A DNA stretch of 64,000 nucleotides, taken from contig JAVYML010000003.1 in NCBI GenBank assembly GCA_038736355.1, positions 22,093 to 86,092 of the forward strand, written 5' to 3'. The position numbers and the translations under genes are program-made. The notes below the pieces were generated by a model that saw only the letters and a program-made list of their open reading frames with translations, was not told the DNA's origin and ran no database searches. Shown here one piece after another: positions 1 to 47,240 of this stretch; the stretch's first letter is position 1, and each line of letters starts with the position of its first letter. The DNA comes from Candidatus Hadarchaeales archaeon. GTDB lineage: Archaea; Hadarchaeota; Hadarchaeia; Hadarchaeales; WYZ-LMO6.

Positions 1-565
1 AGCCGGTGCTTTGGACGGCATTGCTGCCGCCATACCCCAAAGTTGAGGTAGCAAACCGCGGGGTCGATATGGACTCTCGCCCGCGACCACTCTGTTATCC
101 CCGGGGTACCTTTTCTGTCATCCGGAGCCCTCACCAAGAGGGACATCCGGGTTCGCTAGGCCCGGCTTTCGCCCCTGCGCGCCTTGGTAGTGAGCGCGCA
201 GTCAGGCCGGCTTTTGGCCTTGTCCTTGGCGGCGGAGTTCTGACCCGCCTAAGCCGACCTTTGGACCCCCTCGATATCTTTTCGAGGGGCTGCCGCCCCA
301 GCGAAACTGCCCACCTGCCGTTGTCCCCCTGACGGGGTTAGGGGCACGGTTAGGAGTGGGCGGTGTTACATCGGCGCCTCCGCCGGACCCGAAGATCCGG
401 CTTCCACGGCTCCCGCCTACCCTCTGCACCCGCAACCGCGTCCCAGCGACAGGCTGCAGTAAAGGTCCACGGGGTCTTCGTTTCCCTTCGGGGGACCCCG
501 GCATGTTCGCCGGCAAGCGGGTTCACCGGGTTGCAGGCCGGGACAGTGGGGGGCTCGTTGATTCC

Positions 566-597
<32 letters not shown>

Positions 598-602
598 TTA
601 CG

Positions 603-1304
603 CTACCTTAAGCTCCCTTCCTCACATGTCGGAAGGTGGACCATATCATCGCCCTCCTCGGGCGCCTGGCGTATGGTCTCTGAGGATCCCCCTTCAACGA
701 GCCTTTCCAGTTTTTCCCTCTTTTCGGGATGTCTGAATCCTATGGCATCCCTGAACTTTTTCACTCTCTCCAAGCCTTTTATGACCAGCGAGAACTGCGG
801 ATTTTTCCCCCATGCCCTCGGTTTTTTGACGGAAATCGCACTTTCAATCCCTGCTTCCAGAAGAATTCCATGTAGCTGTCCGATGAGAGGCCTGGCGATC
901 ATGTCGATCCCGACATATGGATAGCTGTAGGTTTTTCCCCCATGCTTTTGTTTGTCGACTCCACAGTAGCCTTCTGCATCGAAGAGCCCCCTTGCCACCT
1001 CCAGCCTTGAGACTTTGTCCTCCGTGAAAGTCTTCGGAATTCTGAGGGTGGTGAGTTTCCTTCCCTTCGGGTACCCGATTTTCACGAAGAACTTATGGAT
1101 ATCCTTGCGGTTGGTACTGACTATCCAACAGTTCGGCGAACCCCTGTTCACCCTCGGCTTGAAGTTGAAGATCCTTTCGACGGTCTTTGCGATGCTTTCC
1201 GCAAATTCCCTGTTCTTATCCCTGCAAAACACCGTGTACGAATTTCCATAGACACCTCCGTCACCGAGCATTACACCAACGAGGTAAGCTAGGGACTCTG
1301 TCAT
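603..1304 (-). CDS. LAGLIDADG homing endonuclease (intron-encoded). The ORF runs 9 nt into the downstream exon.
   Basis: Two LAGLIDADG-type motifs are present (LAYLVGVMLGDGGV and RGLFDAEGYCG). The start is chosen at the Met just before the first motif (MTESLAYLVG). The long ORF-track version (to 1523) extends into exon sequence and is not used. Confidence 0.7.
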   Translation of the reverse strand: MTESLAYLVGVMLGDGGVYGNSYTVFCRDKNREFAESIAKTVERIFNFKPRVNRGSPNCWIVSTNRKDIHKFFVKIGYPKGRKLTTLRIPKTFTEDKVSRLEVARGLFDAEGYCGVDKQKHGGKTYSYPYVGIDMIARPLIGQLHGILLEAGIESAISVKKPRAWGKNPQFSLVIKGLERVKKFRDAIGFRHPEKREKLERLVEGGSSETIRQAPEEGDDMVHLPTCEEGSLR

Positions 1305-1463
1305 CACTGTCGATTTAAGAGGGACTCTGTTATTTCGTTTCCGGCCCTCTGGGGTTTCCTGCGGGTCGACCTCATCGGAGATGGACTTTGTTACCCTTTT
1401 TCGGGTAGCCCATCTCCCCTCACGTCTTCCCCGCATACAGCCAGGTTTTACAACCCCCTTCTC
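612..1463 (-). mobile_element. rRNA intron (archaeal type) encoding a LAGLIDADG homing endonuclease, inserted near E. coli 23S position ~1925-1927
   Basis: Removing 612..1463 restores the conserved 23S sequence ...GGGGGTAACTATAACCCTC/TTAAGGTAGCGTAATACCTTGCCG. The intron interior carries the endonuclease ORF. Boundaries are good to within a few nt. Confidence 0.75.
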
Positions 1464-3599
1464 GAGGGTTATAGTTACCCCCGCCCATTGGCGGCGCTTC
1501 GGCCGGTTGTACCCGGCTTTCACGTACCGCCTGTAGGCAGAATTCAGCTCCCGTACTCACCCTTTCGGGCTAGCGGGAACCTACGTTTTTATTAAACAGT
1601 CGGCCCCCCCTGGTCACTGCGACCTGCCCTCCGCAGGGCAGGCACCCCTTCTCCCGAAGTTACGGGGCCAACTTGCCGAATTCCCTGGCCTGCTGTCTCC
1701 CGTCACACCTTAGGCTTCTCACCTAGGGGCACCTGTGTCGGATCTAGGTACGGTCACCCAGGATCCCATTTCCGGTCCCCCTTTTCACGGGCCCCGGAGA
1801 TGAACCGAACCCGCCTAACGGCAGGCCCATCCCGCCCTCATCCGGTTCTCTCCATTACGGAACTCCCCGGACTTCGACGGTTGGATGGGGCGACGGCCCC
1901 ACTCGGTCTGCCCCGAGGCGTCGGAGGACCGGCCTGCGTTGCCGCCGGTACCTGGGTGGTTCCGGAATATTAACCGGATTCCCTTTCGGCGGCCTCTGGT
2001 TGAGGGCCGCCTCAGGACCGACTAACCCTCGGCTGACGACCATTGCCGAGGAACCCGGGCCCCTTCGGCGGTGGGGATTCTCACCCCACTAGGCTGTTAC
2101 TACCACCAGGATCCTCGTTCCCACGCGGTCCACCCGACCTCACGGCCGGGCTTCTCCCCACGCGGGACGCCCCCCTACCGGATCAGGCTACTGAACTTCG
2201 CCTGCCCCGGGGTCTCGGCAGCTGGCTTAAGCCCCGTTCATCTTCGGTGCCCCCACCCTCGACGGGTCCGCTTTTACGCGTTGTTTAAAGGGTGGCTGCT
2301 TCTGAGCCTACCTCCCCGCTGTCTCAGGGTGGAGACGCCCTTTGGATTTCTGCACTTAGCCAGCATTTGGGGGCCTTAACCCCGGTCTGGGTTGTTCCCC
2401 TCTCGGAGCGGGAGCTTACCCCCCGCACCCCGTCTCCGGCGGTCTACGGCGCCGGTCGCTTCGGAGTTCGACAGCGAGGGCAAGGGTTTCCCCCTGTCAC
2501 CCCGCAATCGGTGCTCTACACGACCGGCTACCTCGCGCCGGGCCTGACTGCGGCCAGCTTCGGGGGGAACCAGCTGTCACCGGGCTTGATGGGTCTTTCG
2601 CCACTAGCCCAGGGTCATCCGACCGAATTGCACGTCAAGACCGGTTCGGCCCTCCACCCCATAGAGGGGCTTCAGCCTGCCCTGGACTAGATCGCCCGGT
2701 TTCGGGTCTCACCGCCGTGACTCCGGGCGCTGTTAACACCCCGTCCCTCGCCCTTTCGGGCTGCGGACCGTCGCTTTCGCTCCGGCTCCGGGGTTTCAAC
2801 CCCTTAACCTCGCCACGACGGTGAACTCCCTGGCCCGTGATTCAAGACGGACGGTACGACCCCGATCCCCCTCCCTCGTACCACCGCCTCACGGCGGCTT
2901 CCTTCGGGAGGGCTCACCTCTTTCGAGCCGTACCTTACTGTCGCCACCTGGTTTCAGGCTCTTTTCACCCCCCTTCCGGGGTACTTTTCAGCTTTCCCTC
3001 GCGGTACTGCGTTCGCTATCGGTCTCGAGACGTATTTAGGGTTGGGAGTTGGTGCCTCCCAGCTTCGGACGCCAATCCCAAGGCGCCCTACTCAGGATCC
3101 CTCCCCTCGTATCCTGCACAGTTACCCCTACGGGGCTTTCACCCTCTACGGCGCGCCATTCCAGGCGACTTCGGGTTCCCGTGCGAGGAATTGGGGGAGG
3201 TCCTACAACTCCACATCCCCGACGACTTTCGCCGCCGGGTTCGGTTTGCCCTGTGCCCTCTTCACTCGCCGTTACTGAGGGCATCGCTTTTGCTTTCTCT
3301 TCCTCCCGGTACTGAGATGTTTCACTTCCCGGGGTTCCCGTTCGCAGCTCCCAAAAGAGCCGCGAACGCAGGGGGTTAACCCCTGCAGGATTCCCATTCG
3401 GTGATCCCGGGTTCTACGGCTGCCTGCGCCTCGCCCGGGCTTTTCGCAGCTTGCCACGACCTTCTTCGGCGCTCGAGCCGAGCCATCCCCCAGGTGGCTT
3501 GGTTCCCCGCTCGACGGCTTCCGGACCTGTGCCTGGCCTCATCAGCTTTTAGCCTGAGCCCTTCGCGCGAGAAGCGCTCTCTCTTCCCGCGCTGCATGC

Positions 3600-3674
3600 T
3601 GGTGGACCCGCCGGGATTCGAACCCGGGGCCTTCGGCTTGCAAAGCCGACGCTCTACCACTGAGCTACGGGCCC
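3600..3674 (-). tRNA. tRNA-Ala (anticodon UGC), CCA encoded, in the 16S-23S spacer
   Basis: Reverse complement folds as GGGCCCG-TA-GCTCAGTGGTAGAGC-G-TCGGC-TTTGCAA-GCCGA-AGGCC-CCGGG-TTCGAAT-CCCGG-CGGGTCC-A-CCA. The G3:U70 alanine identity pair is present and the anticodon is TGC. Confidence 0.9.
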
Positions 3675-3706
3675 AAGAGAAGTCCGGGCCTCCGCCAGAT
3701 ATATAC

Positions 3707-5190
<1,484 letters not shown>

Positions 5191-5458
5191 GGTGGCCGCA
5201 AGACCTTTAGGCGGAGGCCTCGGACCTCTCTCGGACCCGAACTCTCCAGTGGCCTGGGTTTTTCGGGCCCACATACTGATTCCACACCCGGAATTCGACC
5301 CTTCATCGCTGGTTAAACACCCGGCTCCCGGCCGACGCCTTGAGGGTGTGGAGCCAATAGTATGTAAGGGAGAAGCCATACTTAAGGCTTGTCCTGAAAG
5401 GAATCCGCCGGGGGTTCTCTGGGACGGTTCTTTATCCTCTGGGGAAAAAAGAGGGGAA

Positions 5459-6133
5459 ATGGATCAGGAAATAGATGTTTCCGTGGTCGTCCCCACCTAC
5501 AACGAGGCTGGAAATCTCCCTCCCTTGATCAGGCGGTTGGCAAGGGCCTTGAGGGGCAGGAGGTGGGAAGTGGTGGTGGTGGATGATGGTTCCCCAGATG
5601 GTACGGGGAAGGTAGCGGAGATCTTGGCCAGGAAGTATCCTGTCAGGCTGGTTCAGCGTGGGAAGAGGGGTGGTCTCTCCTCTGCAGTGGTGGAAGGATG
5701 GCGGCATGCGGGAGGCAGGGTCCTGGTGGTGATGGATGCCGATCTCCAGCATCCACCCGAGCTGGTTCCAGAGCTGGTGATGAAAGTGGAGGAGGGGAAC
5801 GATTTGGTCCTGGCCTGCAGGACGCGATGGGTGGGATGGAGGGGGGCTGCCTCCAAGTTGATGGGCGAACTGGTGAGGACCCTTTTGCACCTTCCCGTGC
5901 GGGATCCCCATTCGGGCTTCTTCGCCCTACGCCGGGTGGTTGGGAGGATAAAACCGAGGGGGTACAAAATCCTCCTGGAATGTCTGGTGAGGGGGAGGTA
6001 CAGAAGGGTGGCTGAAGTTTTCTACTCCCAAGGGAAAAGGAAATGGGGGAGGAGCAAATGGGGGGTGAGGGAGGGGTGGGAGTACCTGCGGCAGCTTCTG
6101 GATCTCTTAGGGTATTCAAAGGGGGGAAGATGA
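5459..6133 (+). CDS. Family 2 glycosyltransferase (dolichyl-phosphate mannose/glucose synthase-like)
   Basis: VSVVVPTYNEAGNL...VVVVDDGSPDGT...VMDADLQHPPE are GT2 / Dpm1-type motifs. The ATG at 5459 is chosen because the longer ORF (from 5192) would overlap the 16S 5' end. Confidence 0.85.
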   Translation: MDQEIDVSVVVPTYNEAGNLPPLIRRLARALRGRRWEVVVVDDGSPDGTGKVAEILARKYPVRLVQRGKRGGLSSAVVEGWRHAGGRVLVVMDADLQHPPELVPELVMKVEEGNDLVLACRTRWVGWRGAASKLMGELVRTLLHLPVRDPHSGFFALRRVVGRIKPRGYKILLECLVRGRYRRVAEVFYSQGKRKWGRSKWGVREGWEYLRQLLDLLGYSKGGR

Positions 6134-6204
6134 ACCGGGTCCGGAGATAGTGGAGGATATGGACCCACTACCTCAGGTACAAACTGGCCTCTCCCCCCCT
6201 TTCT

Positions 6205-7150
6205 TTTGCCAACTATTTCATCACCGTGAGATGCAATTTGAAGTGTATTTACTGCCCAGTGAGAACGGATACAGGCTCCAAAATCTTTGATTACTGTTCC
6301 TCTTCCAGGCAAGAACTCAGCACGGAGGAGGCTAAGAGGGCAATGGAGGAACTGGGAAAGCTTGGCACCCTCTGGATTTCCTTCAGCGGAGGCGAGCCCC
6401 TCCTACGTCCAGATCTGGAAGAAATAGCCGATAAGGCTAGGAGGGAAGGGATGTTTACCATCTTGGACACCAATGCCACCCTCATAACCAAAAAGGAGGG
6501 CGAGAACCCTCTCCAGAGTTTTCGACAGTGCAGTGGTATCCCGTCAGGGGATGGAAAGGAAGAACGATGAGATGAGGGGGAAGGGCACCTGGGGGAGGAC
6601 AGAGGGGAATAGAGTTTCTGAAGGAGAGCGGGTGTGAGGTGGGGGTGAACTTCATCCTGACCAACCTCAACCTGGGGAAAATAGAGGAAGTAGTGAACTT
6701 TCTGAGGGAAAGGGTGGATCATCTCTTTTTCAACCCCGTTTGTGAGGCCAAGGGTTCATGCCCACCAGGGAACAGGTGAGGTGGTTGGAAGGCAAGCTTT
6801 TTTGAGCTGAAGAGGGAGCACGGGAGTTTCCTTTCCAATTCCCCAGAGCATTTGCGGGCCATCGTGAGGTACCTTCGGGGGGGAGGGTGGTGGAGTGCGA
6901 ACCCTTCACCCTGCATGTTTCCCTCATGCCCAACGGAGATCTCTGCGGATGCTTTTACCCTTTTCCGGTGGGGAAAGTGGGGGGGAAGATTTGGAGGAGG
7001 TCAGACTGAGGGGGAAGGAGAAAAGGGAGGAACTCTGGCGGGAATGCGGTGGATGTGCCAACTCCTCCTATTTCCACGTCACCAGGCTCTTCAGGGGATC
7101 TCCCTTTACCTGCTGGAAAGAAGATTTTCCCCCTAGGCAGAACCATTATG
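6205..7150 (+). pseudogene. Radical SAM/SPASM-domain gene disrupted by at least four frameshifts
   Basis: Frame 1 gives VRCNLKCIYC (CX3CX2C) then SFSGGEPLLRPDLEEI, and stops at 6570. Downstream fragments in other frames read GIEFLKESGCEVGVNFILTNLN..., EPFTLHVSLMPNGDLCGCFYPF, and ELWRECGGCANSSYFHVTRLF (SPASM-like Cys motifs). Homopolymer G/C runs sit at the frame breaks, so sequencing error cannot be excluded. Confidence 0.6.
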
Positions 7151-7329
7151 TTTTCCTAAGGTCAATATCCCACTTCCCCAAGCGGGGCCCCACATCGAGA
7201 CGGAACCTCATCCTATAAGCGGTCCACTGCGCGGAGCAGCATGGGTCATTAAAGATTGGCGACCTGCGATTTAAAAAGGAGGTGCCCTCAGTTTCCCTCA
7301 GTTTTCTTTATGGAAAAGAAGAACAGTGA

Positions 7330-8280
7330 ATGATGAGGTTCCTCCGCCTCAGGGCTTGGAGATTTCCCTTCTTCCACAGGATGATCTGGCTTCTTTCACC
7401 CCTCCTCTACTTCGTCTTCAGCAGGGACCTCTTTTCCTCCTTCCTTCCCACTTTTTTTCTCCTCCTCCCCTTTCTCTTTCTATACGGTGCCTTCTCGGTG
7501 CTGATCAACGACTATTTTGATTTCCCTTTCGATCTCGCGGCGGGCAAGGAGGTTGAACCCCTCTCGCGCACGGAGATCCTCCTCCTCTCCTCCCTTACCC
7601 TTTCGGCCTGCCTGGGGCTCTCCTTCCTATTATCCCCCAGTTTGTCCTTCCTCCCCCTGCTTGGCCTGATCCTGGCCTTCCTTTACTCGGTGAAGGGAAT
7701 AAGACTAAAGGAGAGGGGATGGATGGGAGTGGGAACGGACGTGGGTATAGAGTTCCTCCCCCTCCTCTTCTCCATCCTCCTCCTGCGCCTCCCCCGATGG
7801 GATCCCGATGTGTTTCTCTTCCTCCTTCTCTACATCTCCGTCCAGCTGACCTCCCAAGTGGAGCACCAGCTGAAGGACTTGGAGAGGGACAGGAGGGTGG
7901 GACTGAAAACGCTGGTTACCGAAAGGGGGGAGGAATTCGGCCTGAGGCTCCTTCGCTTCTTTTCTTCCCTCTCCTTCCTCCTCCTCTTTCCACTCCTATT
8001 CTGGTTTTCCTCTCTCCCCTGGTTCAGCCCGCTCTTTCTCTTCTTTCTCCTTTTCTCCCTCTTCCACCCCAAATGGAACCCTGAATTTCCCCAAGCCCAT
8101 AGGGTCTCCCCCCTCTTCGCCGATATCTTCTACCTCTTCCTCTTCCAAATTTTCCCCCTTTATCTCTCCCTTCTCATGGTATGGACCCATCCTTTCTTCC
8201 TTCCCCTCCTCCCCCCCATCCTCCTCCTCGATTGCAGGTTCCTGTTCATGTCCTGGAGGTGGATAAGGAGATGGGTTTGA
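7330..8280 (+). CDS. UbiA-family prenyltransferase-like polytopic membrane protein
   Basis: First Asp-rich motif NDYFDFPFD (NDxxDxxxD) and second motif DLERD (DxxxD), with ~8 hydrophobic helices. Confidence 0.75.
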   Translation: MMRFLRLRAWRFPFFHRMIWLLSPLLYFVFSRDLFSSFLPTFFLLLPFLFLYGAFSVLINDYFDFPFDLAAGKEVEPLSRTEILLLSSLTLSACLGLSFLLSPSLSFLPLLGLILAFLYSVKGIRLKERGWMGVGTDVGIEFLPLLFSILLLRLPRWDPDVFLFLLLYISVQLTSQVEHQLKDLERDRRVGLKTLVTERGEEFGLRLLRFFSSLSFLLLFPLLFWFSSLPWFSPLFLFFLLFSLFHPKWNPEFPQAHRVSPLFADIFYLFLFQIFPLYLSLLMVWTHPFFLPLLPPILLLDCRFLFMSWRWIRRWV

Positions 8281-9383
8281 AACTGGCGGTTTGCCACGAT
8301 CTCCTCAGCGTGAAGGGGGGTGCGGAAAGGGTAGTCCTTACGGTGGCGAGGGCCTTCAGGGCCGAGGTTTTCACTCTCCTCTACGATCCCTCCCAGGCCT
8401 TCGAGGAGGCCAGGGGGCTGAAGATCCACACCCTCGGCGACTGGAAGCTGCCCCAGGATCGGAGGTTCTATCCCTGGATTTATCCCTTCTTCCACGGCTG
8501 GGGAATCCTGAAGTTCCTCGGATTAGACCTGAGGGGATACGATGCCGTTTTCACCAGCGGGAAGCTCGGTATCTTCGCCAAGGGAGAGGTAACCCTCCAC
8601 TACTGCCATTCCCCTCCTCGTTTCCTCTACGACCTTCGCCCCATCGTTTCCCTCTATCTGGGAAGGAGGTACGGATCGCCGGTGAGGGCCCTCGCCGAAC
8701 TCTGGTGGAGGGGGTGGAGGAGGATGGACGAATGGGCGGCAAGGAGACCGAACCTAATTTTGGCCAACTCCTTGGAGGTAAAGAAAAGGATCTGGAGGTA
8801 CTACGGGAGGGAGGCGGAGGTCGTCTATCCTCCCGTAAAAGTGGAGAAGTTCAGGATGAAGGGGGGAGGGGAATACTTCTTGGCGGTCCAGAGGCCAAGC
8901 CCGGAGAAGAGGATAGAGCTCCTCCTCAGGATCTTCAAGAGGCTGCCGGGCGAGAGATTGGTGCTGGTGGGCAGCTACATAGATCCCGACTACACGGCAT
9001 GGCTTGAAGAAAAGATGAGGGGGATGGGGAACGTGAGCTGGCTGAAGGAGGTGAGCGAGAGAGAACTGGTGGAGCTGTATGCTGGATGCAAAGCCCTCGT
9101 GCACACAGCCAGGAGGGAGGATTTTGGCATGGCGCCCGTGGAGGCCATGGCCTCTGGCAAGCCCGTGATAGCCGTGAACGAAGGGGGGGTGAGGGAAACG
9201 GTGGTGCATGGGAAGACGGGCCTGCTGGTTGATCCCCCCTACCTGAAGAACTTCGTGAGGATCCTCAAGGGCTTCGATCCTTCCCTCTTCTCCCCCAGGG
9301 AATGCAGGAGGAGGGCGGAGGAGTTCTCTGAGGAGAGGTTCGTGAGGAGGATGAAAGAACTGCTGGGGAGGATGCTCGGATGA
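8271..9383 (+). CDS. Family 4 (GT-B) glycosyltransferase
   Basis: C-terminal EDFGMAPVEAMASGKPVIAVNEGGVRETV is the retaining GT4 signature (EX7E). The ATG at 8271 overlaps the end of the UbiA-like gene. Confidence 0.85.
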   Translation: MGLKLAVCHDLLSVKGGAERVVLTVARAFRAEVFTLLYDPSQAFEEARGLKIHTLGDWKLPQDRRFYPWIYPFFHGWGILKFLGLDLRGYDAVFTSGKLGIFAKGEVTLHYCHSPPRFLYDLRPIVSLYLGRRYGSPVRALAELWWRGWRRMDEWAARRPNLILANSLEVKKRIWRYYGREAEVVYPPVKVEKFRMKGGGEYFLAVQRPSPEKRIELLLRIFKRLPGERLVLVGSYIDPDYTAWLEEKMRGMGNVSWLKEVSERELVELYAGCKALVHTARREDFGMAPVEAMASGKPVIAVNEGGVRETVVHGKTGLLVDPPYLKNFVRILKGFDPSLFSPRECRRRAEEFSEERFVRRMKELLGRMLG

Positions 9384-10072
9384 GTTTTTCCATAAGAAGG
9401 GAGCTGAGGGAGAGCGTGGAGTTCCTGATCCGTCCTGGGAAGGTGATGGAGGGGATGGGGATGCTCCCCCTTTCCTTCTCCCTTCCCTTCCTCTTCATCC
9501 TGCGTTATTTCCACTTCTACCTCCATGGTCTGCTGGTCCATCTCCCCTTTTACCGCGCCGAGTATCCCAACCTCCTTTCCTTTTTCTGGCATGAGTTCGA
9601 TCTTTGGCAGGGTTTCCTCCTCCCCGCAGCCCTCTTCTCGCTCTCAGCCGTCCTCTGGTGGATCGGGAGAGTGATGGGGAGGGAGGTGGACTACAGGATG
9701 GCGGAGCACGGAGCTTTTCACGTGCTCGTGGCGGGAGTTCTCCTGGTTCCCTTCGACGCCATCCATCTCTGGTTGTCCCCCACCTATTTCTGGGGGCACT
9801 GCATGCACCTTTCCCTGCTCCTTCAGTTGCTTCTCCTCCCCTATTGGATGAGCGTGTGGGCGGAGAAGTCTCTTGGGGTGAAGAAGAGATACTCTTTCCT
9901 CCCTTCTCTCCTTTTTCCCCTCTCCATCAAGTACGCTGACTGGCTAGTCTTCTCCCCGCCCTTCTTCCTCCTGCTCGCCTACCTTGTTCTCACCCTTTTT
10001 TTCCTCACCGGGGAGAGAGAAAGGTTGGGGGTGGCACTTGGTCTTTCCCTCTGTCTCTGGCTGTTTGGCTGA
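9380..10072 (+). CDS. Polytopic integral membrane protein of unknown function
   Basis: ATG at 9380 overlaps the GT4 stop (ATGA). About 6 predicted TM helices and no motif I recognise. Sits between GT4 and the radical SAM gene. Confidence 0.55.
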   Translation: MSFSIRRELRESVEFLIRPGKVMEGMGMLPLSFSLPFLFILRYFHFYLHGLLVHLPFYRAEYPNLLSFFWHEFDLWQGFLLPAALFSLSAVLWWIGRVMGREVDYRMAEHGAFHVLVAGVLLVPFDAIHLWLSPTYFWGHCMHLSLLLQLLLLPYWMSVWAEKSLGVKKRYSFLPSLLFPLSIKYADWLVFSPPFFLLLAYLVLTLFFLTGERERLGVALGLSLCLWLFG

Positions 10073-10088
10073 GCTGCTGTATCGAGTG

Positions 10089-11000
10089 ATGAGCAGACCA
10101 CCCTTCTGCCATCTTTTCCGTCTCTGGTACCTGAAACGCCGGCTTCTCCCCCGTCCCCACTTCATCCTCTTTCCCACCTTCAGATGCAATTATTACGGGA
10201 GATGCCCTTACTGCCACCTCTTGGACATGGGTTTCCCCCGCCTCTACCCGGAGGACCTGTCCGTGGAGAAGGCCGTGGATTCCTTCCTCCGCTTTTCCGA
10301 TTCGGAGCTGGACGTGTCGGGAGGGGAGCCCTTCCTCTGGCGGGGAATCAGGGAATTCGTGGAAGAGGTGGGGAAGGAGAACAGGGTGGGTGTGACCACC
10401 AACCTCTCCTGGGAGGTGGAGAGGGAGAGGGAATGGCTATCCGGTTTCAGCTCCATAACGGCCAGCTATCATCCCGAGGCGGTTGGGTTGGAGGAGTTCT
10501 TGAAAAAAGTGGTGCTGCTCCGCTCCATCCATCCAAAGGTGAAGGTAAACGTGGTGGCCTATCCCCCTCTCCTCCATCGGGTGGGGGAGGCGGTGGAGAG
10601 GTTCAGGAGGGAGGGAATTTTCGTCCACGTGGATCCCTATCTCTCCCCCTACACCAAGGGAGAAAGGGAATGGGTGAGGCTTCTCTTGGTGAGCAAGAGG
10701 AAGGTGGAGTTCCCGCCGGCGGGCCTGAAGAAATGCGATGCGGGCAGAAGACATTTCGTGGTCCTGCCCGATGGGAGCGTCTACACCTGCTGGAACGGAT
10801 GCATGCTGGAACACCTCCTAGGCCCTTCCGTGCTGGGGCGTTCCTACCGGTTAGGGAATTTGCTGGAAGGTACTTTCTCTCCCTTGCGGGAGGAACTCGA
10901 ATGTTGGCTCCCCTGTTCTGCCGGCTGCGATTTGGACTATGTGAAGCAGCGAACCATCACAGAGGTTAAATCCATGGGGAAAGAGAGGATGGATTGGTGA
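10089..11000 (+). CDS. Radical SAM/SPASM-domain protein (putative peptide/protein maturase) with a non-canonical CX5CX2C cluster motif
   Basis: FRCNYYGRCPYC is followed by DVSGGEPFLW (SAM-binding GGE). C-terminal Cys-rich region CWNGC...CWLPCSAGCD is typical of SPASM/twitch auxiliary clusters. The stop TGA 10998-11000 overlaps the start of the next gene. Confidence 0.8.
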   Translation: MSRPPFCHLFRLWYLKRRLLPRPHFILFPTFRCNYYGRCPYCHLLDMGFPRLYPEDLSVEKAVDSFLRFSDSELDVSGGEPFLWRGIREFVEEVGKENRVGVTTNLSWEVEREREWLSGFSSITASYHPEAVGLEEFLKKVVLLRSIHPKVKVNVVAYPPLLHRVGEAVERFRREGIFVHVDPYLSPYTKGEREWVRLLLVSKRKVEFPPAGLKKCDAGRRHFVVLPDGSVYTCWNGCMLEHLLGPSVLGRSYRLGNLLEGTFSPLREELECWLPCSAGCDLDYVKQRTITEVKSMGKERMDW

Positions 11001-13933
11001 GGGCCTTTGCGGAGGTGGCGGCCGGGGCGGCGCTCCTTCTCTCCCTCCTTCTCCTTTCCCCGCTCAGTGCCCTCACTTTCACGGACACCATCAACGCCGA
11101 TTTCGCCCAGGGAATCCACGAGAACACGGAGAACGTGAACGACGACCTCAGGCTCAAGGTAGGCTACCTGCAGGGCAGGTTCACCTCAAGGGTCTTCGAC
11201 GCGGGGCAGTTACAAGTCTGGGATACCCTTTCCTGGAATGCCACCCTTCCCACCCTCATGGTGAGCGTGGAGAACGACAACGTGGGGGCGGAGCCCACCA
11301 CGCTGGTGGACGGGACCGTCAGGATGGGGAGGATTACGGGGGGCTCCCTCTTGGACACCCGTACGGCGAACGGGGTTTACGAAAATATAACGGAGGAGGC
11401 GGGAGCCCCCTACGGGGGGATGGTGAACCTCATTCTCTTCTGGGATGGAGCCTCCATCCCCTCCGGCTGGACCTGCATCTCCGATGATGCGGGGGAACCC
11501 TTTTACTACAGGTTTCCCATGGGGGGATCTACCTACGGGAGCACGGGAGGAACGGAGACCCACACCCACTCCAGCACCTCCTCCTGCGGGGGTCCCTCCG
11601 CCACCCTCCAGAGGAACTCGGGAAGTGCCGTGACCACCGCCACCAGTACCCACACCCACACTCCGACCGTCACCGTTGCCACCGAAAATCATCTCCCCCC
11701 CTACTACGACCTGAAGGTGATCAGGTACAACTCCGGGATTCCCTCCATCCTGCCGGCGGGCGTGATAGCCCTTTTCCCCTCCACCTCCCTCCCCCCGGGC
11801 TGGTCCCTCTACACGGCGGCGGATAACCGCTTCCTCAGGGGGGCCCCTTCGGCAGGGGGTATGGGGGGAAACCCCACCCACACCCATAGCGTGAGCGTGA
11901 GCACTGGGGGCCCCTCCTCTACGGTCGGGCTGGCCACGGACCCCTGTGATGACTCCACCGCTTATCCCACCAGCACCCACACCCACACCGGGTCGGGTAC
12001 CACCTCGTCCGCCACCAACCTTCCACCCTACATAACGGTGGTCCTGGGCAAGGCCGGCTCCGACACCCCTATACCCGGGGGGATGATAGGGATGTTCGAC
12101 GGCATTCCAAGCGGTAACTGGACGGTTCTCCCATCCTTCAACGGGAGGTTCCCGATGGAGAACCTCACCGCCGGATACGGGGTCACGGGAGGGAGCTCCA
12201 CCCACAACCATTCCGACCTGAGTATTACCACCGGGACGGGTGCCACCGCTTCGGCCAACCTGGATGCGGGAACCGCCGTCACCTTCGCCAGCGGTACCCA
12301 CACCCACACCGTCACGGTTTCCTTCACCGAGAGCTCCCACCTTCCCCCTTACGTCACGGTGATCTTCGCCCAGGCCACCTGCGGGCTCCGCTGGCAGCAG
12401 AACATAGAGAATGTTACGACGGGCTACTCCAACTACCAGCTGCAGGTGAAGGGTAAGACGAGCGGTGATTCCGAAAATGTGAGGGTATACGTGTGGAAGA
12501 GCGGCGAAAACTCCTGGGAGTACGTGGGGGACCTCACGGGAACTGAAACGACCCTCACTAAGAACATCCCAGCTTCGGAGCTTTCCTCCTACCTGAGCGG
12601 GACCAGCCTGCTGGTCAAGTACGAGTCGGCAGACAACACAGATCTCTCCCCCACCACCCTTCATGTGGACCTCTGCATACTGGTGGAGGGTGTGCTTTAC
12701 CAGAGCTACGTGAAGTTCAGGGTTAAGGTAAGTGCCGATGGCTCAACATGGAGTGAGGAGCTTGGTCCAGACGGCACCCCCAACACCTTCTTCACTTCCT
12801 CCCCCGCCAACCTGGATACCATTCCGGAAAACCGGTACATCCGCTACGTGGCGTACCTCTCCAGTGAGCATTCCCAGCTCACGGGTGCCAACGGTCCAAA
12901 GGTACACGATGTGACCATCACCTCCCTCACCGCCGGACAGGCCAACGTGTTCACCATGGAGGCCGAGAACGTGGGGTGGGAGAGTGCCACCCTCACCGCC
13001 AGGCTCCTCTACGTGGATCCAACTGCGGTGGTGAGGTTCCAGTACATGCCGGAGGGTGGCACTTGGGTGAGCACCCCCTGGAAAAGCTGGCAGGGAAGCT
13101 GGTACTGGTATCCACTCACGGGCCTGCAGGAGAACAAGAAGTACTACTTCCAGGCGCAGGTGAGATACGGCGGACAGGTCTATGGGGGTGGAATCAGAAC
13201 CTTCAAAACCCTCTCCAGCAAGCCCTATGCCATCACCCTGAAGGCCACGGAGGTGGACAACTCCTCCGCCGTGCTCAACGCCAGGATTTACTACGCCAAC
13301 TACGACAGCGTGAGCATAAGGTTCTGGTACCAGAAGGATGGGGTCTGGACGGCCACCCCTCTCGTTTCCGGCTACAGGGGCACCACCTACAGCTACAGGG
13401 TCACGGGCCTTACCGCGAACACGCTCTACTACTTCAAGGCCGAAATCACCTACGATTCCACGTCCGAGAACGCCAACGTGGAGACCTTCACCACCTTCTC
13501 CTCCAAGACCACCGGCATGGCCTACGATGGTGGTATGGGCTTTGGTTCCTACCCTTCGGGCTGGCATGGGGTAAGGATGACCCCGCCTTCCGGTACGACG
13601 GGTCTGAAACTGGAGCTCCTCACCTCTTCATCCTTCTCCGCCCATCACACCCTTCGGGTGGTGAGGGACAACGGGGAGCTGCTTTACGCGGGCCACGTCC
13701 TCTCCGACAACGGGAGGAGCAAGGTGGTGAGCGTGAGGTTCTGGAAGAGCACGGCTGGGGAGAGCGTGTACGTGGAGCTTTACGATCCCTACGGTTTCGC
13801 CTACAGGACCAAGGGCACCAAGGCCTCCCTAGGAGGGGCCACATACGCCTATTCCTATCTGGACCGTGCCGGAAAGAACCTGAAGTACTACGACAGGGCT
13901 TGCGGCGTGAACGTGCTAGAGATTTACACGTGA
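10994..13933 (+). CDS. Large secreted protein (979 aa) with signal peptide, three tandem phage tail-collar-like repeats carrying six HxH motifs, then FN3-like beta-sandwich domains
   Basis: N-terminus VRAFAEVAAGAALLLSLLLLSPLSALT is a signal peptide. Three ~100-aa repeats run from aa ~143 to ~456. Each has a PxGW core, a first HxH (THTHS / THNHS), a second THTHT about 40 residues later, and a closing (N/H)LPPY(Y/I/V)(D/T)(L/V)(K/V)(V/I)I. The C-terminal half has FN3-like endings (YYFQAQVRYGG...IRTFKT and YYFKAEITYD...VETFTT). The start is TTG/GTG at 10994/10997; no ATG is in frame. Confidence 0.8.
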   Translation: MVRAFAEVAAGAALLLSLLLLSPLSALTFTDTINADFAQGIHENTENVNDDLRLKVGYLQGRFTSRVFDAGQLQVWDTLSWNATLPTLMVSVENDNVGAEPTTLVDGTVRMGRITGGSLLDTRTANGVYENITEEAGAPYGGMVNLILFWDGASIPSGWTCISDDAGEPFYYRFPMGGSTYGSTGGTETHTHSSTSSCGGPSATLQRNSGSAVTTATSTHTHTPTVTVATENHLPPYYDLKVIRYNSGIPSILPAGVIALFPSTSLPPGWSLYTAADNRFLRGAPSAGGMGGNPTHTHSVSVSTGGPSSTVGLATDPCDDSTAYPTSTHTHTGSGTTSSATNLPPYITVVLGKAGSDTPIPGGMIGMFDGIPSGNWTVLPSFNGRFPMENLTAGYGVTGGSSTHNHSDLSITTGTGATASANLDAGTAVTFASGTHTHTVTVSFTESSHLPPYVTVIFAQATCGLRWQQNIENVTTGYSNYQLQVKGKTSGDSENVRVYVWKSGENSWEYVGDLTGTETTLTKNIPASELSSYLSGTSLLVKYESADNTDLSPTTLHVDLCILVEGVLYQSYVKFRVKVSADGSTWSEELGPDGTPNTFFTSSPANLDTIPENRYIRYVAYLSSEHSQLTGANGPKVHDVTITSLTAGQANVFTMEAENVGWESATLTARLLYVDPTAVVRFQYMPEGGTWVSTPWKSWQGSWYWYPLTGLQENKKYYFQAQVRYGGQVYGGGIRTFKTLSSKPYAITLKATEVDNSSAVLNARIYYANYDSVSIRFWYQKDGVWTATPLVSGYRGTTYSYRVTGLTANTLYYFKAEITYDSTSENANVETFTTFSSKTTGMAYDGGMGFGSYPSGWHGVRMTPPSGTTGLKLELLTSSSFSAHHTLRVVRDNGELLYAGHVLSDNGRSKVVSVRFWKSTAGESVYVELYDPYGFAYRTKGTKASLGGATYAYSYLDRAGKNLKYYDRACGVNVLEIYT

Positions 13934-14029
13934 TGGGGCCAGGGCCGGGAGCTCCGCCGGTCTTACCGGATTCGAACCCGGGTCACGGGATCCACAGTCC
14001 CGGATGCTGACCGCTACACCACCCTGGCC
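13934..14029 (-). tRNA. tRNA-His (anticodon GUG) with encoded G-1 and CCA, and a probable ~20-nt non-canonical intron in the T-arm
   Basis: Reverse complement is G-GCCAGGG-TG-GTGTAGCGGTCAGCAT-CGGGA-CTGTGGA-TCCCG-TGAC-CCGGG-TTCGAAT-CC[GGTAAGACCGGCGGAGCTCC]CGG-CCCTGGC-C-CCA. A canonical T-stem forms only if the bracketed ~20 nt are spliced out. Confidence 0.75.
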
Positions 14030-16104: not shown

Positions 16105-16435
16105 GTAAGATATATTACTGCGGGAAGAAAGAAGAATGGTGCCGGCGAGCTGGTGGGCAGCTGCCGGGCGGTAACGCCTGAGGAAATTCCACCCCTCAAG
16201 CGGGTACCGCGAGTCCGTGAGGACTGGGCCGAGAGGCCCGACCCTGGCACAGAAACGATACCCGCCGGCTTCTCGAGGAGGATGAGGCGGAAACGCTGAG
16301 AGGGGGTCGGGGGATGAAACGGCCATTCCGCGGGAGGCAAGGGCAAAAGACCGTCTATGAGCACCCGCTCGAGACGGGTGGTAGCCCGCTAAGCCCAATG
16401 CTGCCTAGAACAGAAGGTGGATTACGGCCAGGACG
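16105..16435 (+). ncRNA. rnpB: Candidate RNase P RNA (archaeal type A-like)
   Basis: A ~430-nt GC-rich gap between acs and rps26e has no credible ORF. It contains motifs resembling conserved RNase P RNA regions: GGGCGGTAACGCCTGAGG (P10/11-like GGUAACGCC), GGCACAGAAACGATACCCGCCGG (like ACAGAAAACAAACCGCCGG), GGCAAGGGCAAAAGACCG (like CAAGGCCAAAUAGGG), and GCCTAGAACAGAAGGTGGATTACGGCC (like CUAGAUAGAUGAUCGCC). A clean CR-I (GGAAAGUCCGGGCUCC) is not obvious and the ends are approximate. Confidence 0.5.
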
Positions 16436-16473
16436 CCGGCACTCCATCACCCTTTTATCCCGTAGACGGGAGG

Positions 16474-45075: not shown

Positions 45076-46395
45076 ATGAACAGGTGGATTTGTCCCCTTC
45101 TCTCCTCCCTCCTTCTTCTTTTCCTCCTTCCTCCCTCCTTCGCCGGTTCTTCTGTCTATTCCTTCCAAGCCACCTACAGGCTCACCAACACCAGTTCCTC
45201 CGAAGTAGAGGGTTGGCTAGAGGTCTTTGCCTTTGACAACGAGAACTTCGGGTGGGATTTCCAAGTGGTACTGGAAGAGAACTTCTCTCCCATGCCGCAA
45301 GAGTTTCGCGGGGAGGATAATAGGATCTTGAAGTTCCTTTTGGGAAAGCTTCCTCCAGGAAGTTGGAAGGAGGTCCGCCTAATCCAGCTCCTGAGGGTGA
45401 AAGGAAGGAAGTGGGAAAGGCTGGAGGGGGAGGGGGAAATCCCACAAGAGCTCCTGAAGTTCACGGTCCCCGTCCCGAACCTCTGGGAGGATGCTCCGGA
45501 GTTGAAGGAGAAGGCGGAGGAGTTGAGGGGGGAAACCCCCTATTTGACCGCCAAGAACCTCTTCGAGTTCGTGAAAAACCATCTGAGTTATGTCAAATGG
45601 GCTCAGGATCAGAGTGCCCTTCAGGCCTATCGAAGCCGTGTGGGAAAGTGTACGGAGTTCACCAACCTCTTCATTGCGCTGGCTAGGCTCTCCGGTCTTC
45701 CCGCCAAGTTCCTAGCTGGATATGGCTACAACTCCAAGCTGGGTGAAAACGCCGAGGAAATGGGGCATGCCTTTGCAATCCTGTACCTCCCGGGTGTGGG
45801 ATGGGTGCCGGTGGACGAGACTTGGATGGGAGGACAGTTTGGGGAACTGGGGGAGGATCATCTCATCCTCTTCTCCAGCGATGGTTCCAATTTGGTAAAG
45901 AACGGAAGGGTGAGCATTCCGGGTGAGAAATGGAGTGGGGGAACGAAGCTGGAAAAATTCCTCTACCTTTACAGGGAGGCAGCGGTGGAAGCGGACCTGA
46001 AGAGAGGGGGACTGGAGAATGGAAAAATAGCAGTGATGGTAACTCTGAGAAATACTGGCAGGAGCATTCTCGAAGATCTAACCGTGCGCTTGGAAGTGGA
46101 GGAGGACTCTTTCCGTCCCGTGGCCCCACAGATGGTGAAGAGGCTGTCTCCCAGGGAGGAGGTGGAGGTGGATTTCTACTTGGAGCCCTTGAGGGGAGCG
46201 GAGAATTCTCCCTTGAGGGCAGAGGTATGGGCCCGCAGCCCCTATGGGGAGGTTTCCTCGGAGAGCACCATGTTCCTTACGGTGGTTATCGAACCCGCAC
46301 CTTCCCCACTCCCTCTGCCCTCCGAGCTCCTTCTATCCGCGGTAGCAGGGTTAGTGGTGGTAGTAGTCCTGATCCTTCTCCTCAAACGCCGCTGA
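45076..46395 (+). CDS. Secreted transglutaminase-like cysteine protease-fold protein with C-terminal TM anchor
   Basis: Signal peptide (LLSSLLLLFLLPPSFAGSS). Cys-His-Asp triad GKCTEFTNLF...GHAFAILYLPGVGWVPVD. C-terminal hydrophobic anchor followed by KRR. Confidence 0.75.
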   Translation: MNRWICPLLSSLLLLFLLPPSFAGSSVYSFQATYRLTNTSSSEVEGWLEVFAFDNENFGWDFQVVLEENFSPMPQEFRGEDNRILKFLLGKLPPGSWKEVRLIQLLRVKGRKWERLEGEGEIPQELLKFTVPVPNLWEDAPELKEKAEELRGETPYLTAKNLFEFVKNHLSYVKWAQDQSALQAYRSRVGKCTEFTNLFIALARLSGLPAKFLAGYGYNSKLGENAEEMGHAFAILYLPGVGWVPVDETWMGGQFGELGEDHLILFSSDGSNLVKNGRVSIPGEKWSGGTKLEKFLYLYREAAVEADLKRGGLENGKIAVMVTLRNTGRSILEDLTVRLEVEEDSFRPVAPQMVKRLSPREEVEVDFYLEPLRGAENSPLRAEVWARSPYGEVSSESTMFLTVVIEPAPSPLPLPSELLLSAVAGLVVVVVLILLLKRR

Positions 46396-46434
46396 TTTCT
46401 CCGTTTTAAAATTCCTCCATCTCAAACAACTCCG

Positions 46435-46590
46435 ATGGGTTCGCTCCCCTTTCTTCTCCTCCTAGCGGTCCTTTGGTATCTTTTCGTCTGGCAGAAGGGA
46501 AAGCTGGTAGAAAGAAGGAACGACCTCTTACAGGCCCTACGAAGGGTGGAGGAGGATCTGCGCAGGGCCTTGGAGGGAGAGCATGCATGA
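46435..46590 (+). CDS. Small (51 aa) membrane-anchored hypothetical protein
   Basis: MGSLPFLLLLAVLWYLFVWQKGK... is an N-terminal TM helix followed by a charged helical tail. Not a class III (pilin) signal. Confidence 0.35.
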   Translation: MGSLPFLLLLAVLWYLFVWQKGKLVERRNDLLQALRRVEEDLRRALEGEHA

Positions 46591-47125
46591 GGAACTTTTG
46601 AGAAGGGTGGAAAAGTTGGCGGGGGAGGAAAGGCTTTCTCCATCTTTCTTTGATGGGATTCTGGAACTGCTTTTGGAAATAAGGTCCAGACCTTCCCTTA
46701 GCTCCGATCCGGAGATAGCATCGGTTCTCCAGTGGATGGAGGAACTGAGCTTCAGGCTGAAGGATTCCGATAGGGGTTGCAGGTCTGGCTTTCTCAGGGA
46801 GGAGTGGAGGAGGATTAGGATTTACGAGTTCAGGAGGTTGAAGGAGGGTCTCTCAGTGTTGGAAAAAAGGTTGAGGGAACGTCTACGAGGAGACCCTCCC
46901 TTGGAGCTGAGAAGGTTGGTGGAAGAAATGAGGGAGGAGGGCGCGATAAGGGAAACCACTTGGGCCCTCCTGCTTTCCTCCCCTTGGGGTAAGAGGGAAA
47001 TGGAAAGGAGGGAAGTGAAGGAAGCCCTCCTCAGGGTCCTGCGCCTCTTCTCGGAGTTTAGGGAGTTGAGGAGGGAAAACCGTGGGATGGAGAAAAAAGA
47101 CTTCGGTGCTGGTGGAGCACGGTAG
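46583..47125 (+). CDS. Hypothetical coiled-coil protein (180 aa, Arg/Glu-rich)
   Basis: ORF with a periodic charged helix pattern. The ATG overlaps the stop of the previous small ORF. Confidence 0.4.
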   Translation: MHEELLRRVEKLAGEERLSPSFFDGILELLLEIRSRPSLSSDPEIASVLQWMEELSFRLKDSDRGCRSGFLREEWRRIRIYEFRRLKEGLSVLEKRLRERLRGDPPLELRRLVEEMREEGAIRETTWALLLSSPWGKREMERREVKEALLRVLRLFSEFRELRRENRGMEKKDFGAGGAR

Positions 47126-47240
47126 ATGGATTTCTCAACTCCTCAACGACTTCAGGGTGTTGGAGCAGCGCTTGGAGCACTTGGAAAAAAGGGTTGGAAT
47201 GCTGGAGGAGTGTCTCCGCCGTCTTTTGGAGGGAAAATGA

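Follow-up and report, generated by a model that had tools for sequence, protein, structure and literature searches.

A strain-variable surface island beside the 16S rRNA gene of a Hadarchaeales archaeon carries an uncharacterized radical SAM clade and an HxH repeat module

What does a radical S-adenosylmethionine (rSAM) enzyme act upon when its gene adjoins the 5' end of a giant surface-protein gene? The question is raised by a 64,000-nucleotide (nt) stretch of a Candidatus Hadarchaeales archaeon genome (GCA_038736355.1, contig JAVYML010000003.1, positions 22,093 to 86,092; 'the window' below), in which seven co-oriented genes beside the 16S rRNA gene end in an open reading frame (ORF) for a 979-amino-acid (aa) secreted protein, the 'giant', directly preceded by the gene of the enzyme in question, rSAM2. 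The first-pass annotation of this DNA described a glycosylation-type cluster and proposed that rSAM2 is a maturase translationally coupled to the giant, its likely substrate. The glycosylation reading turns out to be reasonable, whereas the maturase and translational-coupling reading is not supported. The locus is, on balance, probably a swappable surface island that encodes an adhesin-like secreted protein together with a partly decayed glycan or glycolipid pathway, in which rSAM2 tailors a sugar or another small molecule and does not mature a polypeptide. A strain-variable archaeal surface island is a locus of a known kind; what is new is its content, namely, an uncharacterized rSAM clade and a repeat module that lies outside all Pfam families.

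The variability of the island is plain from the comparison with GCA_038862525.1 (L004; related loci are denoted by L numbers and individual homologous proteins by P numbers), which is 99.8% identical to positions 1-5391 of the window and 98-100% identical from ~13865 on, but has 2.4 kb where the window has 8.5 kb. Between these flanks, L004 contains only a divergent giant allele of 1130 aa, without the HxH module described below and without the cluster, the DNA identity of this allele to that of the window being only 55-78%. Such replacement between near-identical flanks is the pattern by which a flexible island is recognized. In another locus, L016, a module-less giant allele lies right beside the 16S upstream region. 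At this locus, all HxH-bearing alleles come with the cluster, and both module-less alleles (L004 and L016) come without it; the co-occurrence hints at a functional link between the two but is only suggestive because both are physically linked in one cassette.

The borders of the island are equally clear. It occupies positions 5392-13933, with the upstream region of the 16S gene on one side and the 3' end of a tRNA-His gene on the other. To the left, the minus strand encodes the rRNA operon (23S, 1-3514; tRNA-Ala; 16S, 3709-5188), the first cluster gene begins ~270 nt past the 16S 5' end, and all seven genes are on the plus strand, as originally annotated; homology in all lineages, including L003, L002 and L016, ends at 5390/5391. 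On the right, the 3' end of the tRNA-His(GUG) gene (13934-14029, minus strand) abuts the giant stop codon. This gene scores 29.8 bits against Rfam with a broken acceptor stem and contains a non-canonical intron of ~20 nt in the T-arm: when ~20 nt after TTCGAAT are removed by eye, the T-stem, an 8-bp acceptor stem with G-1:C73 and the CCA are restored. ARAGORN misses the unspliced gene and calls tRNA-His on spliced versions, but nearly every tried deletion is called, so that this test is permissive and leaves the intron borders unfixed. The stretch singled out by the first-pass annotation (5459-13933) is a replaceable cassette framed by two highly conserved RNA genes.

The cluster opens with a family 2 glycosyltransferase (GT2) gene (5459-6133, plus strand) of the polyprenyl-phosphate sugar synthase type (ArnC/DPM1-like; PF00535, E = 1e-31), for which ArnC is the best NCBIfam match (E = 4.5e-23, under the cut-off) and which resembles ArnC, PgfS and AglJ. 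Next comes rSAM1 (~6150-7140, plus strand), an rSAM/SPASM-type pseudogene in which the fragment 6226-6570 matches PF04055 (E = 8e-15). A tblastn search with the intact homologues from L003 and L001 covers its full length in frames 1, 2 and 1, and at least seven frame-breaking indels of 1-2 nt set it apart from the intact 358-aa copy of L012 (333-358 aa among the related loci), so the original description of this gene as decayed holds. The UbiA-superfamily prenyltransferase gene (7330-8280, plus strand; PF01040, 58.6 bits against a cut-off of 34.2) encodes both Asp-rich motifs, NDxxDxxxD and DxxxD, as NDYFDFPFD and DLERD in the translation; the nearest solved sequence is chlorophyll synthase (E = 2.5e-7), and DGGGP-synthase-type enzymes are also close. 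A role of the DPPR-synthase type, in a pathway to a lipid-linked pentose donor, was rejected, no such family being among the matches. The family 4 glycosyltransferase (GT4) gene (8271-9383, plus strand; PF00534, E = 5e-29, and PF13439) has lipid and inositol GlcNAc transferases as its best NCBIfam matches, all under cut-off. Among the family matches in the cluster, leads to arsenosugar or mycofactocin glycosyltransferases were dismissed as generic superfamily similarity far under the cut-offs. The last gene before rSAM2 (9380-10072, plus strand) encodes a 230-aa polytopic membrane protein with ~5-6 hydrophobic segments, an orphan that has no Pfam or NCBIfam match and matches only two clusters among 5.8 billion proteins, both from Hadarchaeota; in every locus, it adjoins rSAM2.

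The initial assignments of the GT2, UbiA, GT4 and membrane protein genes are, thus, borne out, and so is the description of a glycosylation-type cluster beside a large secreted protein. The appropriate comparison is with archaeal agl clusters and hypervariable surface 'glycosylation islands'. The combination typical of agl clusters, a polyprenyl-phosphate-dependent GT2 with a further glycosyltransferase, is present in the form of the ArnC/PgfS/AglJ-like GT2 and the GT4; as in the known systems, these accompany sugar-tailoring enzymes beside a surface-protein gene, and as in glycosylation islands, strains that are near-identical in the flanks have exchanged the segment as a whole. Unlike agl clusters, the island has no oligosaccharyltransferase but has UbiA, two rSAM enzymes and the orphan membrane protein. 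A full-text search found no paper joining radical SAM, AglB, N-glycosylation and archaea.

Decay and selection coexist in the cluster. The sister strain (L011-L015 and L018; DNA identity 94-96%) shows the reciprocal pattern of damage: in the window, rSAM1 is broken and GT2 is intact, whereas in L012, GT2 (~190-870) is frameshifted and rSAM1 is intact (358 aa). One further locus, L008, is 100% identical to the window and provides no independent confirmation of the frameshifts. Purifying selection acts on the cluster genes that are intact (UbiA, GT4, the membrane protein and rSAM2): their ratios of nonsynonymous to synonymous substitution rates (dN/dS) against the sister strain are 0.11-0.27 (0.20 for rSAM2), compared with 0.056 for the adjacent acetyl-CoA synthetase gene. 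The dS of these four genes against the sister strain (L011/L012) is 0.05-0.09, compared with 0.21 for the giant and the acetyl-CoA synthetase, a contrast that suggests different, mosaic histories of the cluster and its surroundings.

The rSAM2 gene (10089-11000, plus strand; alternative start near 10038) encodes 303 aa and had been taken for an intact rSAM/SPASM gene. The part of this assignment that stands is the fold. The AlphaFold2 (AF2) model, with a predicted local distance difference test (pLDDT) score of 92.5, has a partial TIM-barrel with the GGE SAM-binding motif, and Foldseek retrieves rSAM enzymes at E = 5e-9 to 1e-4, including CteB, anSME, AbmM and SpeY at 5e-9 to 1e-6; the nearest solved folds, all SPASM or twitch rSAM enzymes, are CteB, anSME, AbmM, SpeY, TigE, SuiB and PqqE, with template modeling (TM) scores of ~0.4-0.5. 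The part that does not stand is the full SPASM domain. The protein falls under the Pfam thresholds for both Radical_SAM (PF04055, 26.5 bits against 29.5) and SPASM (PF13186, 19.5 against 21.5); a relative in L021 passes the PF04055 threshold with 46.1 bits. In Hadarchaeota, the clade has Cx5Cx2C instead of CxxxCxxC; in relatives at 27-35% identity, the spacing is Cx3Cx2C. The three cluster Cys, the GGE motif and the C-terminal C216, C234, C272 and C276 are invariant in a 50-sequence alignment, and to judge from the sequence, the four C-terminal Cys would fit one auxiliary cluster, that is, a twitch-like domain. A full SPASM domain has seven to eight Cys and two auxiliary clusters; in rSAM2, its CX12GX4C start is present and CX2CX5CX3C is absent. 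In the model, a single N-terminal helix precedes the barrel, with no extra N-terminal recognition domain, and peptide-maturase families match only weakly (E > 1e-5). The fold neighbours include both peptide-acting and sugar-acting enzymes, so that the predicted fold does not decide between the two kinds of substrate.

Family searches likewise place rSAM2 outside the named families. The best one for rSAM2 and its relatives is NF038073 (STM4011; E = 1e-10 to 3e-16, 41-60 bits against a cut-off of 200), for which we know of no function; a literature search on Hadarchaeota radical SAM or STM4011 yielded nothing relevant, the STM4011 locus tag being mentioned in passing only. No affiliation to a housekeeping family, which would have spoken against the first-pass reading, was found, and the His-Xaa-Ser system rSAM (E = 0.008 for rSAM2) was discarded as generic superfamily similarity far under the cut-offs. 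Word-indexed search of 5.8 billion proteins yielded six relatives, and full profile search of cluster representatives 11,914 at E <= 0.001 and 305 at E <= 1e-30. Many members of this family are fused to further rSAM, B12-binding rSAM, SPASM or TPR domains. The close relatives come only from Hadarchaeota.

The company that the more distant relatives keep is informative. Searches for related loci with four rSAM sequences recovered two loci from genomes (one already known) and four from metagenomes. On a 1.87-Mb metagenome contig (L021), a relative 29% identical to rSAM2 belongs to a co-directional run (2013-11013) of genes for an STT3 oligosaccharyltransferase, a GT2, a B12-rSAM similar to HpnJ over its full length (E = 5e-110, 368 bits), a second GT2, a 389-aa ORF without assignment, the rSAM2 relative and a SAM methyltransferase, an arrangement that suggests radical chemistry within a protein-glycosylation operon and shares its oligosaccharyltransferase with agl clusters. 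Another relative, P0006 (ERZ1426855, 68.9-kb contig), belongs to an array of more than 15 consecutive rSAM genes, two of them B12-binding and several of SPASM types, with GT2 genes among them.

The proposed coupling of rSAM2 to the giant was based on the overlap of the rSAM2 stop codon (TGA, 10998-11000) with the giant starts (TTG at 10994 or GTG at 10997-10999). The overlap itself is real, but it is a recent accident, being the result of a 2-nt insertion peculiar to the window strain (10961-10962, plus strand; window-L011 alignment), which puts a TAA (10967-10969) out of frame and creates a 12-codon rSAM2 tail running into the giant start, 3' of the last conserved Cys. In the sister strain, rSAM2 stops at the TAA ~25 nt ahead of the giant start; in L001, a 20-nt spacer separates the two genes; and in L003, L002, L009, L019 and L020, rSAM2 and the giant are divergently oriented on opposite strands, which makes co-transcription of the two impossible in those lineages and is there an outcome that the first-pass annotation itself named as refuting its reading. 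Translational coupling is, accordingly, refuted as a general property of the pair. What is conserved is the adjacency as such, which was found in every related locus (the window and L008, L011-L015, L018, L001/L010, L003, L002, L009, L019 and L020), whereas the same-strand, coupled arrangement is not; all these loci, with close rSAM2 relatives next to the giant, are from Hadarchaeota. L017 has only 138 nt upstream of the giant, too short for a neighbour, and L019, in which the giant has identical match statistics, shows the divergent rSAM2. The gene order in L001/L010 is GT2, GT4, UbiA, B12-rSAM (HpnJ/BchE-like; E = 8e-42 against HpnJ), rSAM, a geranylgeranyl-reductase-family gene, the membrane protein, rSAM2, the 20-nt spacer and the giant. 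By eye, a TTAAAT hexamer (10966-10971, plus strand), 26-31 nt upstream of the giant GTG, is a candidate archaeal TATA box, and similar A/T hexamers are found 26-33 nt upstream of the giant start in L003, L017, L019, L020, L016 and L005; these hexamers would fit an archaeal promoter of the giant gene's own.

The giant (10994-13933, plus strand) has a signal-peptide-like N-terminus, in line with its annotation as a 979-aa secreted protein; a class III (prepilin) signal peptide was considered and rejected, the N-terminus misfitting, by eye, the usual pattern. Homologues in Hadarchaeales are 60-100% identical, and blastp comparison with the collected homologues delineates an N-terminal domain (residues 1-140), a central module (142-462) and a C-terminal beta-rich region (446-979). 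The giant contains six Cys and seven N-x-S/T sequons, and the C/S-x-P/A-x-R maturase motif is absent from its 979 aa. There is no significant Pfam match for it, and comparison of the whole protein with the sequences in PDB gives noise only. The C-terminal region (12380-13930, plus strand), with FN3-like repeats and an AF_1625_C-type end, is common to the module-less alleles P0012-P0016; in the homologues, PF27237 is precomputed for it.

The central HxH module (11417-12379, plus strand) consists of three ~105-aa repeats (R1, 11417-11743; R2, 11744-12067; R3, 12068-12379), each with a near-invariant Trp, GG, two HxH motifs and (L/I)PP(Y/F). These repeats had been annotated as of the tail-collar type; the repeats are real, but PF07484 is not matched, either by the whole giant (at E <= 10) or by the single repeats, one in 60 of which reaches E = 2.6. 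A hidden Markov model of the repeat finds three copies in 46 of 61 homologues and six copies in nine, the other six having one, two, seven or eight. The AF2 model of the three-repeat segment is one compact body (pLDDT 81.7; predicted TM score, pTM, 0.78), and because the copies come in threes and the predicted body is compact, the three repeats appear to form one pseudo-threefold domain. This domain has no significant structural neighbour in PDB. Its weak match to the tail fibre of phage Pa223 is below significance, and the similarity of single repeats to the Phage_fiber, Gp10_C and GpV Apex families is marginal. The HxH tips of trimeric phage fibres (T4 gp12, gp37 and gp10, the P2 gpV apex and the Pseudomonas phage Pa223 tail fibre, 9nxk) bind metal, and by analogy, the twelve conserved His of the module may hold metal ions. 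In contrast to the three chains of the phage tips, to which all matches are below significance, the module has its three repeats in one chain, and the giant is a cellular protein, the module being represented in archaea, Patescibacteria and Chloroflexota.

Outside the locus, Patescibacteria, Chloroflexota and other archaea have the module in large surface proteins, often together with DUF2341, FN3 or Ig domains, and neither rSAM nor glycosyltransferase genes are found near the module gene in two such loci (L006 and L007). DUF2341 proteins have been proposed to be pilus-tip adhesins (PMC4858521). In L005 (4594-13749), the module-less giant homologue P0016 is encoded beside a 571-aa DUF2341 protein, a 285-aa UbiA protein, small ORFs and a DUF7289 protein, a context that hints at a link between the giant family and pilus-like surface structures.

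Together, these observations allow a tentative mechanism for the island to be drawn. The giant would be a Sec-exported, adhesin-like protein in which the three HxH repeats fold into the pseudo-threefold domain, a putative counterpart, in one chain, of the metal-binding HxH tips that trimeric phage fibres carry. A sugar would be built on an isoprenoid carrier by the GT4 and the ArnC/DPM1-like GT2, UbiA would supply or attach an isoprenoid, and the two rSAM enzymes would tailor the sugar, possibly in its lipid-linked form, by oxidation, epimerization, ring contraction or a similar reaction, with the twitch-like rSAM2 acting on a small molecule and not in polypeptide maturation. We infer that the product most likely ends up on the cell surface and that the giant is plausibly among the molecules decorated, as a recipient of the glycan and not as the substrate of rSAM2. 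With rSAM1 being a pseudogene, this pathway would be partly decayed in the window strain. The reading of rSAM2 as a glycan- or glycolipid-tailoring enzyme follows from the common theme of the cluster and the relatives, a sugar on an isoprenoid carrier. The distant relative in the operon with STT3, GT2, B12-rSAM and methyltransferase genes points, by its context, to sugar tailoring, and the predicted fold neighbours AbmM and SpeY (7wzv and 8wm2, E ~1e-6) count in the same direction. BtrN, SpeY and AbmM are twitch-domain rSAM enzymes that act on sugars or cyclitols, and rSAM2 shares with them a similar size, the Cys set for one auxiliary cluster and the company of glycosyltransferases, but the TM-scores are only 0.36-0.44, and rSAM2 has no membership in their sequence families.

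Several observations weigh against sugar tailoring by rSAM2. The rSAM2 and orphan membrane protein genes adjoin the 5' end of the giant in every lineage found, despite rearrangement of the other cluster genes; at the locus, all HxH-bearing alleles come with these two genes and both module-less alleles come without them, as would fit a specific link to the protein; and the top fold matches, CteB and anSME, are SPASM enzymes that modify proteins or peptides. Furthermore, no oligosaccharyltransferase is encoded in the island, and a partial scan of eight large ORFs elsewhere in the window gave no STT3 match. AglB genes are often located away from the glycosylation cluster. UbiA is unusual in N-glycosylation clusters.

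The first three of these points, with the purifying selection on rSAM2 (dN/dS 0.20), are what speaks for rSAM2, perhaps with the orphan membrane protein, as a dedicated maturase that modifies the HxH module before or during export, in the manner of anSME and sulfatases: neither rearrangement nor inversion has separated the two genes in any related locus, and near-identical strains either have both the cluster and the HxH allele or lack both. The analogy extends to the fold (4k38, E = 2e-7, TM ~0.52) and to the placement of a cytoplasmic rSAM enzyme beside the gene for an exported protein. It fails in that anSME has ~370 aa and seven or eight auxiliary Cys, compared with 303 aa, four auxiliary Cys and Cx5Cx2C in rSAM2; TIGR03942 does not match rSAM2; and the giant, with only six Cys, lacks C/S-x-P/A-x-R. 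Moreover, the rSAM2 model shows no peptide-recognition domain, the overlap with the giant is strain-specific and five loci have the two genes on opposite strands, many proteins elsewhere contain the HxH module, among them those of the two loci without rSAM, and the more distant family members occur in glycosylation or multi-rSAM contexts, one next to STT3, without a large secreted neighbour. The adjacency weighs little because the supporting evidence is entirely confined to one narrow clade, with synteny of the whole island. Maturation of the giant by rSAM2, the central claim of the first-pass annotation, is therefore weakly founded and unlikely. A more specific form, in which rSAM2 and the membrane protein make up a two-gene unit that acts on the HxH module, by cross-linking it or by attaching an isoprenoid-sugar anchor, and is inherited with it as a swappable cassette, appears improbable as well; were it true, it would be the first case in archaea of an rSAM-dependent system that matures a phage-fibre-like cellular adhesin.

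A serious, if doubtful, possibility is that the cluster has nothing specific to do with the giant and that its product is an isoprenoid glycolipid or a cyclitol lipid of the membrane, comparable with calditol or the cyclitol-ether head groups of hopanoids, the two merely sharing a recombination hot spot for surface genes. In the HpnI/HpnJ/HpnK pathway to the hopanoid cyclitol ether and in calditol synthesis by calditol synthase, a glycosyltransferase and an rSAM enzyme remodel a lipid-bound sugar, and the same logic is apparent in L001 and L021, where the B12-rSAM genes match HpnJ and stand beside GT2 genes and genes for isoprenoid enzymes, in L001 a UbiA and a geranylgeranyl-reductase-family gene. 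The lipid and inositol GlcNAc transferases that best match the GT4 also fit, as do the giant alleles without the cluster in L004 and L016. Unlike the Hpn systems, the island in the window has no B12-rSAM, and the HpnJ scores are under the cut-off; to our knowledge, hopanoids are not expected in archaea. In the recovered loci, the cluster never occurs away from an HxH-bearing giant allele, the L021 relative adjoins an STT3 oligosaccharyltransferase, which implies protein glycosylation, and all family matches are far under the curated cut-offs, so that membership in a lipid pathway is not established. It is very unlikely that the cluster is simply a dying remnant, functionless in the window strain. 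The rSAM1 and rSAM2 frameshifts in the window, the GT2 frameshift in the sister strain and the conspecific strain without any cluster would all be in keeping with degeneration, but UbiA, GT4, the membrane protein and rSAM2 are intact and show the dN/dS values of 0.11-0.27 given above, and the rSAM2 frameshift, past the last conserved Cys, adds only 12 residues.

A swappable surface island with a probably sugar-tailoring rSAM2 overturns no current ideas; it does offer glycoproteomics and enzymology something specific to aim at in a lineage of uncultured archaea. To the extent that the libraries and searches used can tell, the rSAM2 clade, twitch-like and often fused to B12-rSAM or SPASM domains, is undescribed, and its association with glycosyltransferases and, in one case, with STT3 hints at radical chemistry in prokaryotic glycan tailoring. 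Undescribed to the same extent is the HxH module, with its three repeats and twelve conserved His, which resembles the phage fibre tips in a single chain. The recombination hot spot between rRNA and tRNA genes, at which surface-protein alleles are swapped together with accessory genes, is also undescribed as far as the searches show.

A few further features were noticed around the island. The 23S rRNA gene (1-3514, minus strand) exceeds the matched model positions by ~870 nt, and the ORF at 603-1523 encodes 306 aa with a LAGLIDADG_3 match (E = 3e-14); the extra stretch is probably a homing-endonuclease intron. The rRNA region of L001 holds a LAGLIDADG_2 ORF. In L016 (12999-13800), the thiamine pyrophosphate (TPP)-binding subunit of 2-oxoacid:ferredoxin oxidoreductase contains an intein (Intein_splicing, LAGLIDADG_3), which is absent from the 291-aa versions in the window and L004. 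The archaeal RNase P RNA (16145-16436, 202.8 bits) lies just past the acetyl-CoA synthetase gene. Farther along, the region 45076-50968, which encodes a transglutaminase-like protein (45076-46395), a 710-aa T2SSE-type secretion or pilus ATPase (47241-49373) and a 560-aa ORF without a family match, may be an archaeal type IV pilus-like locus.

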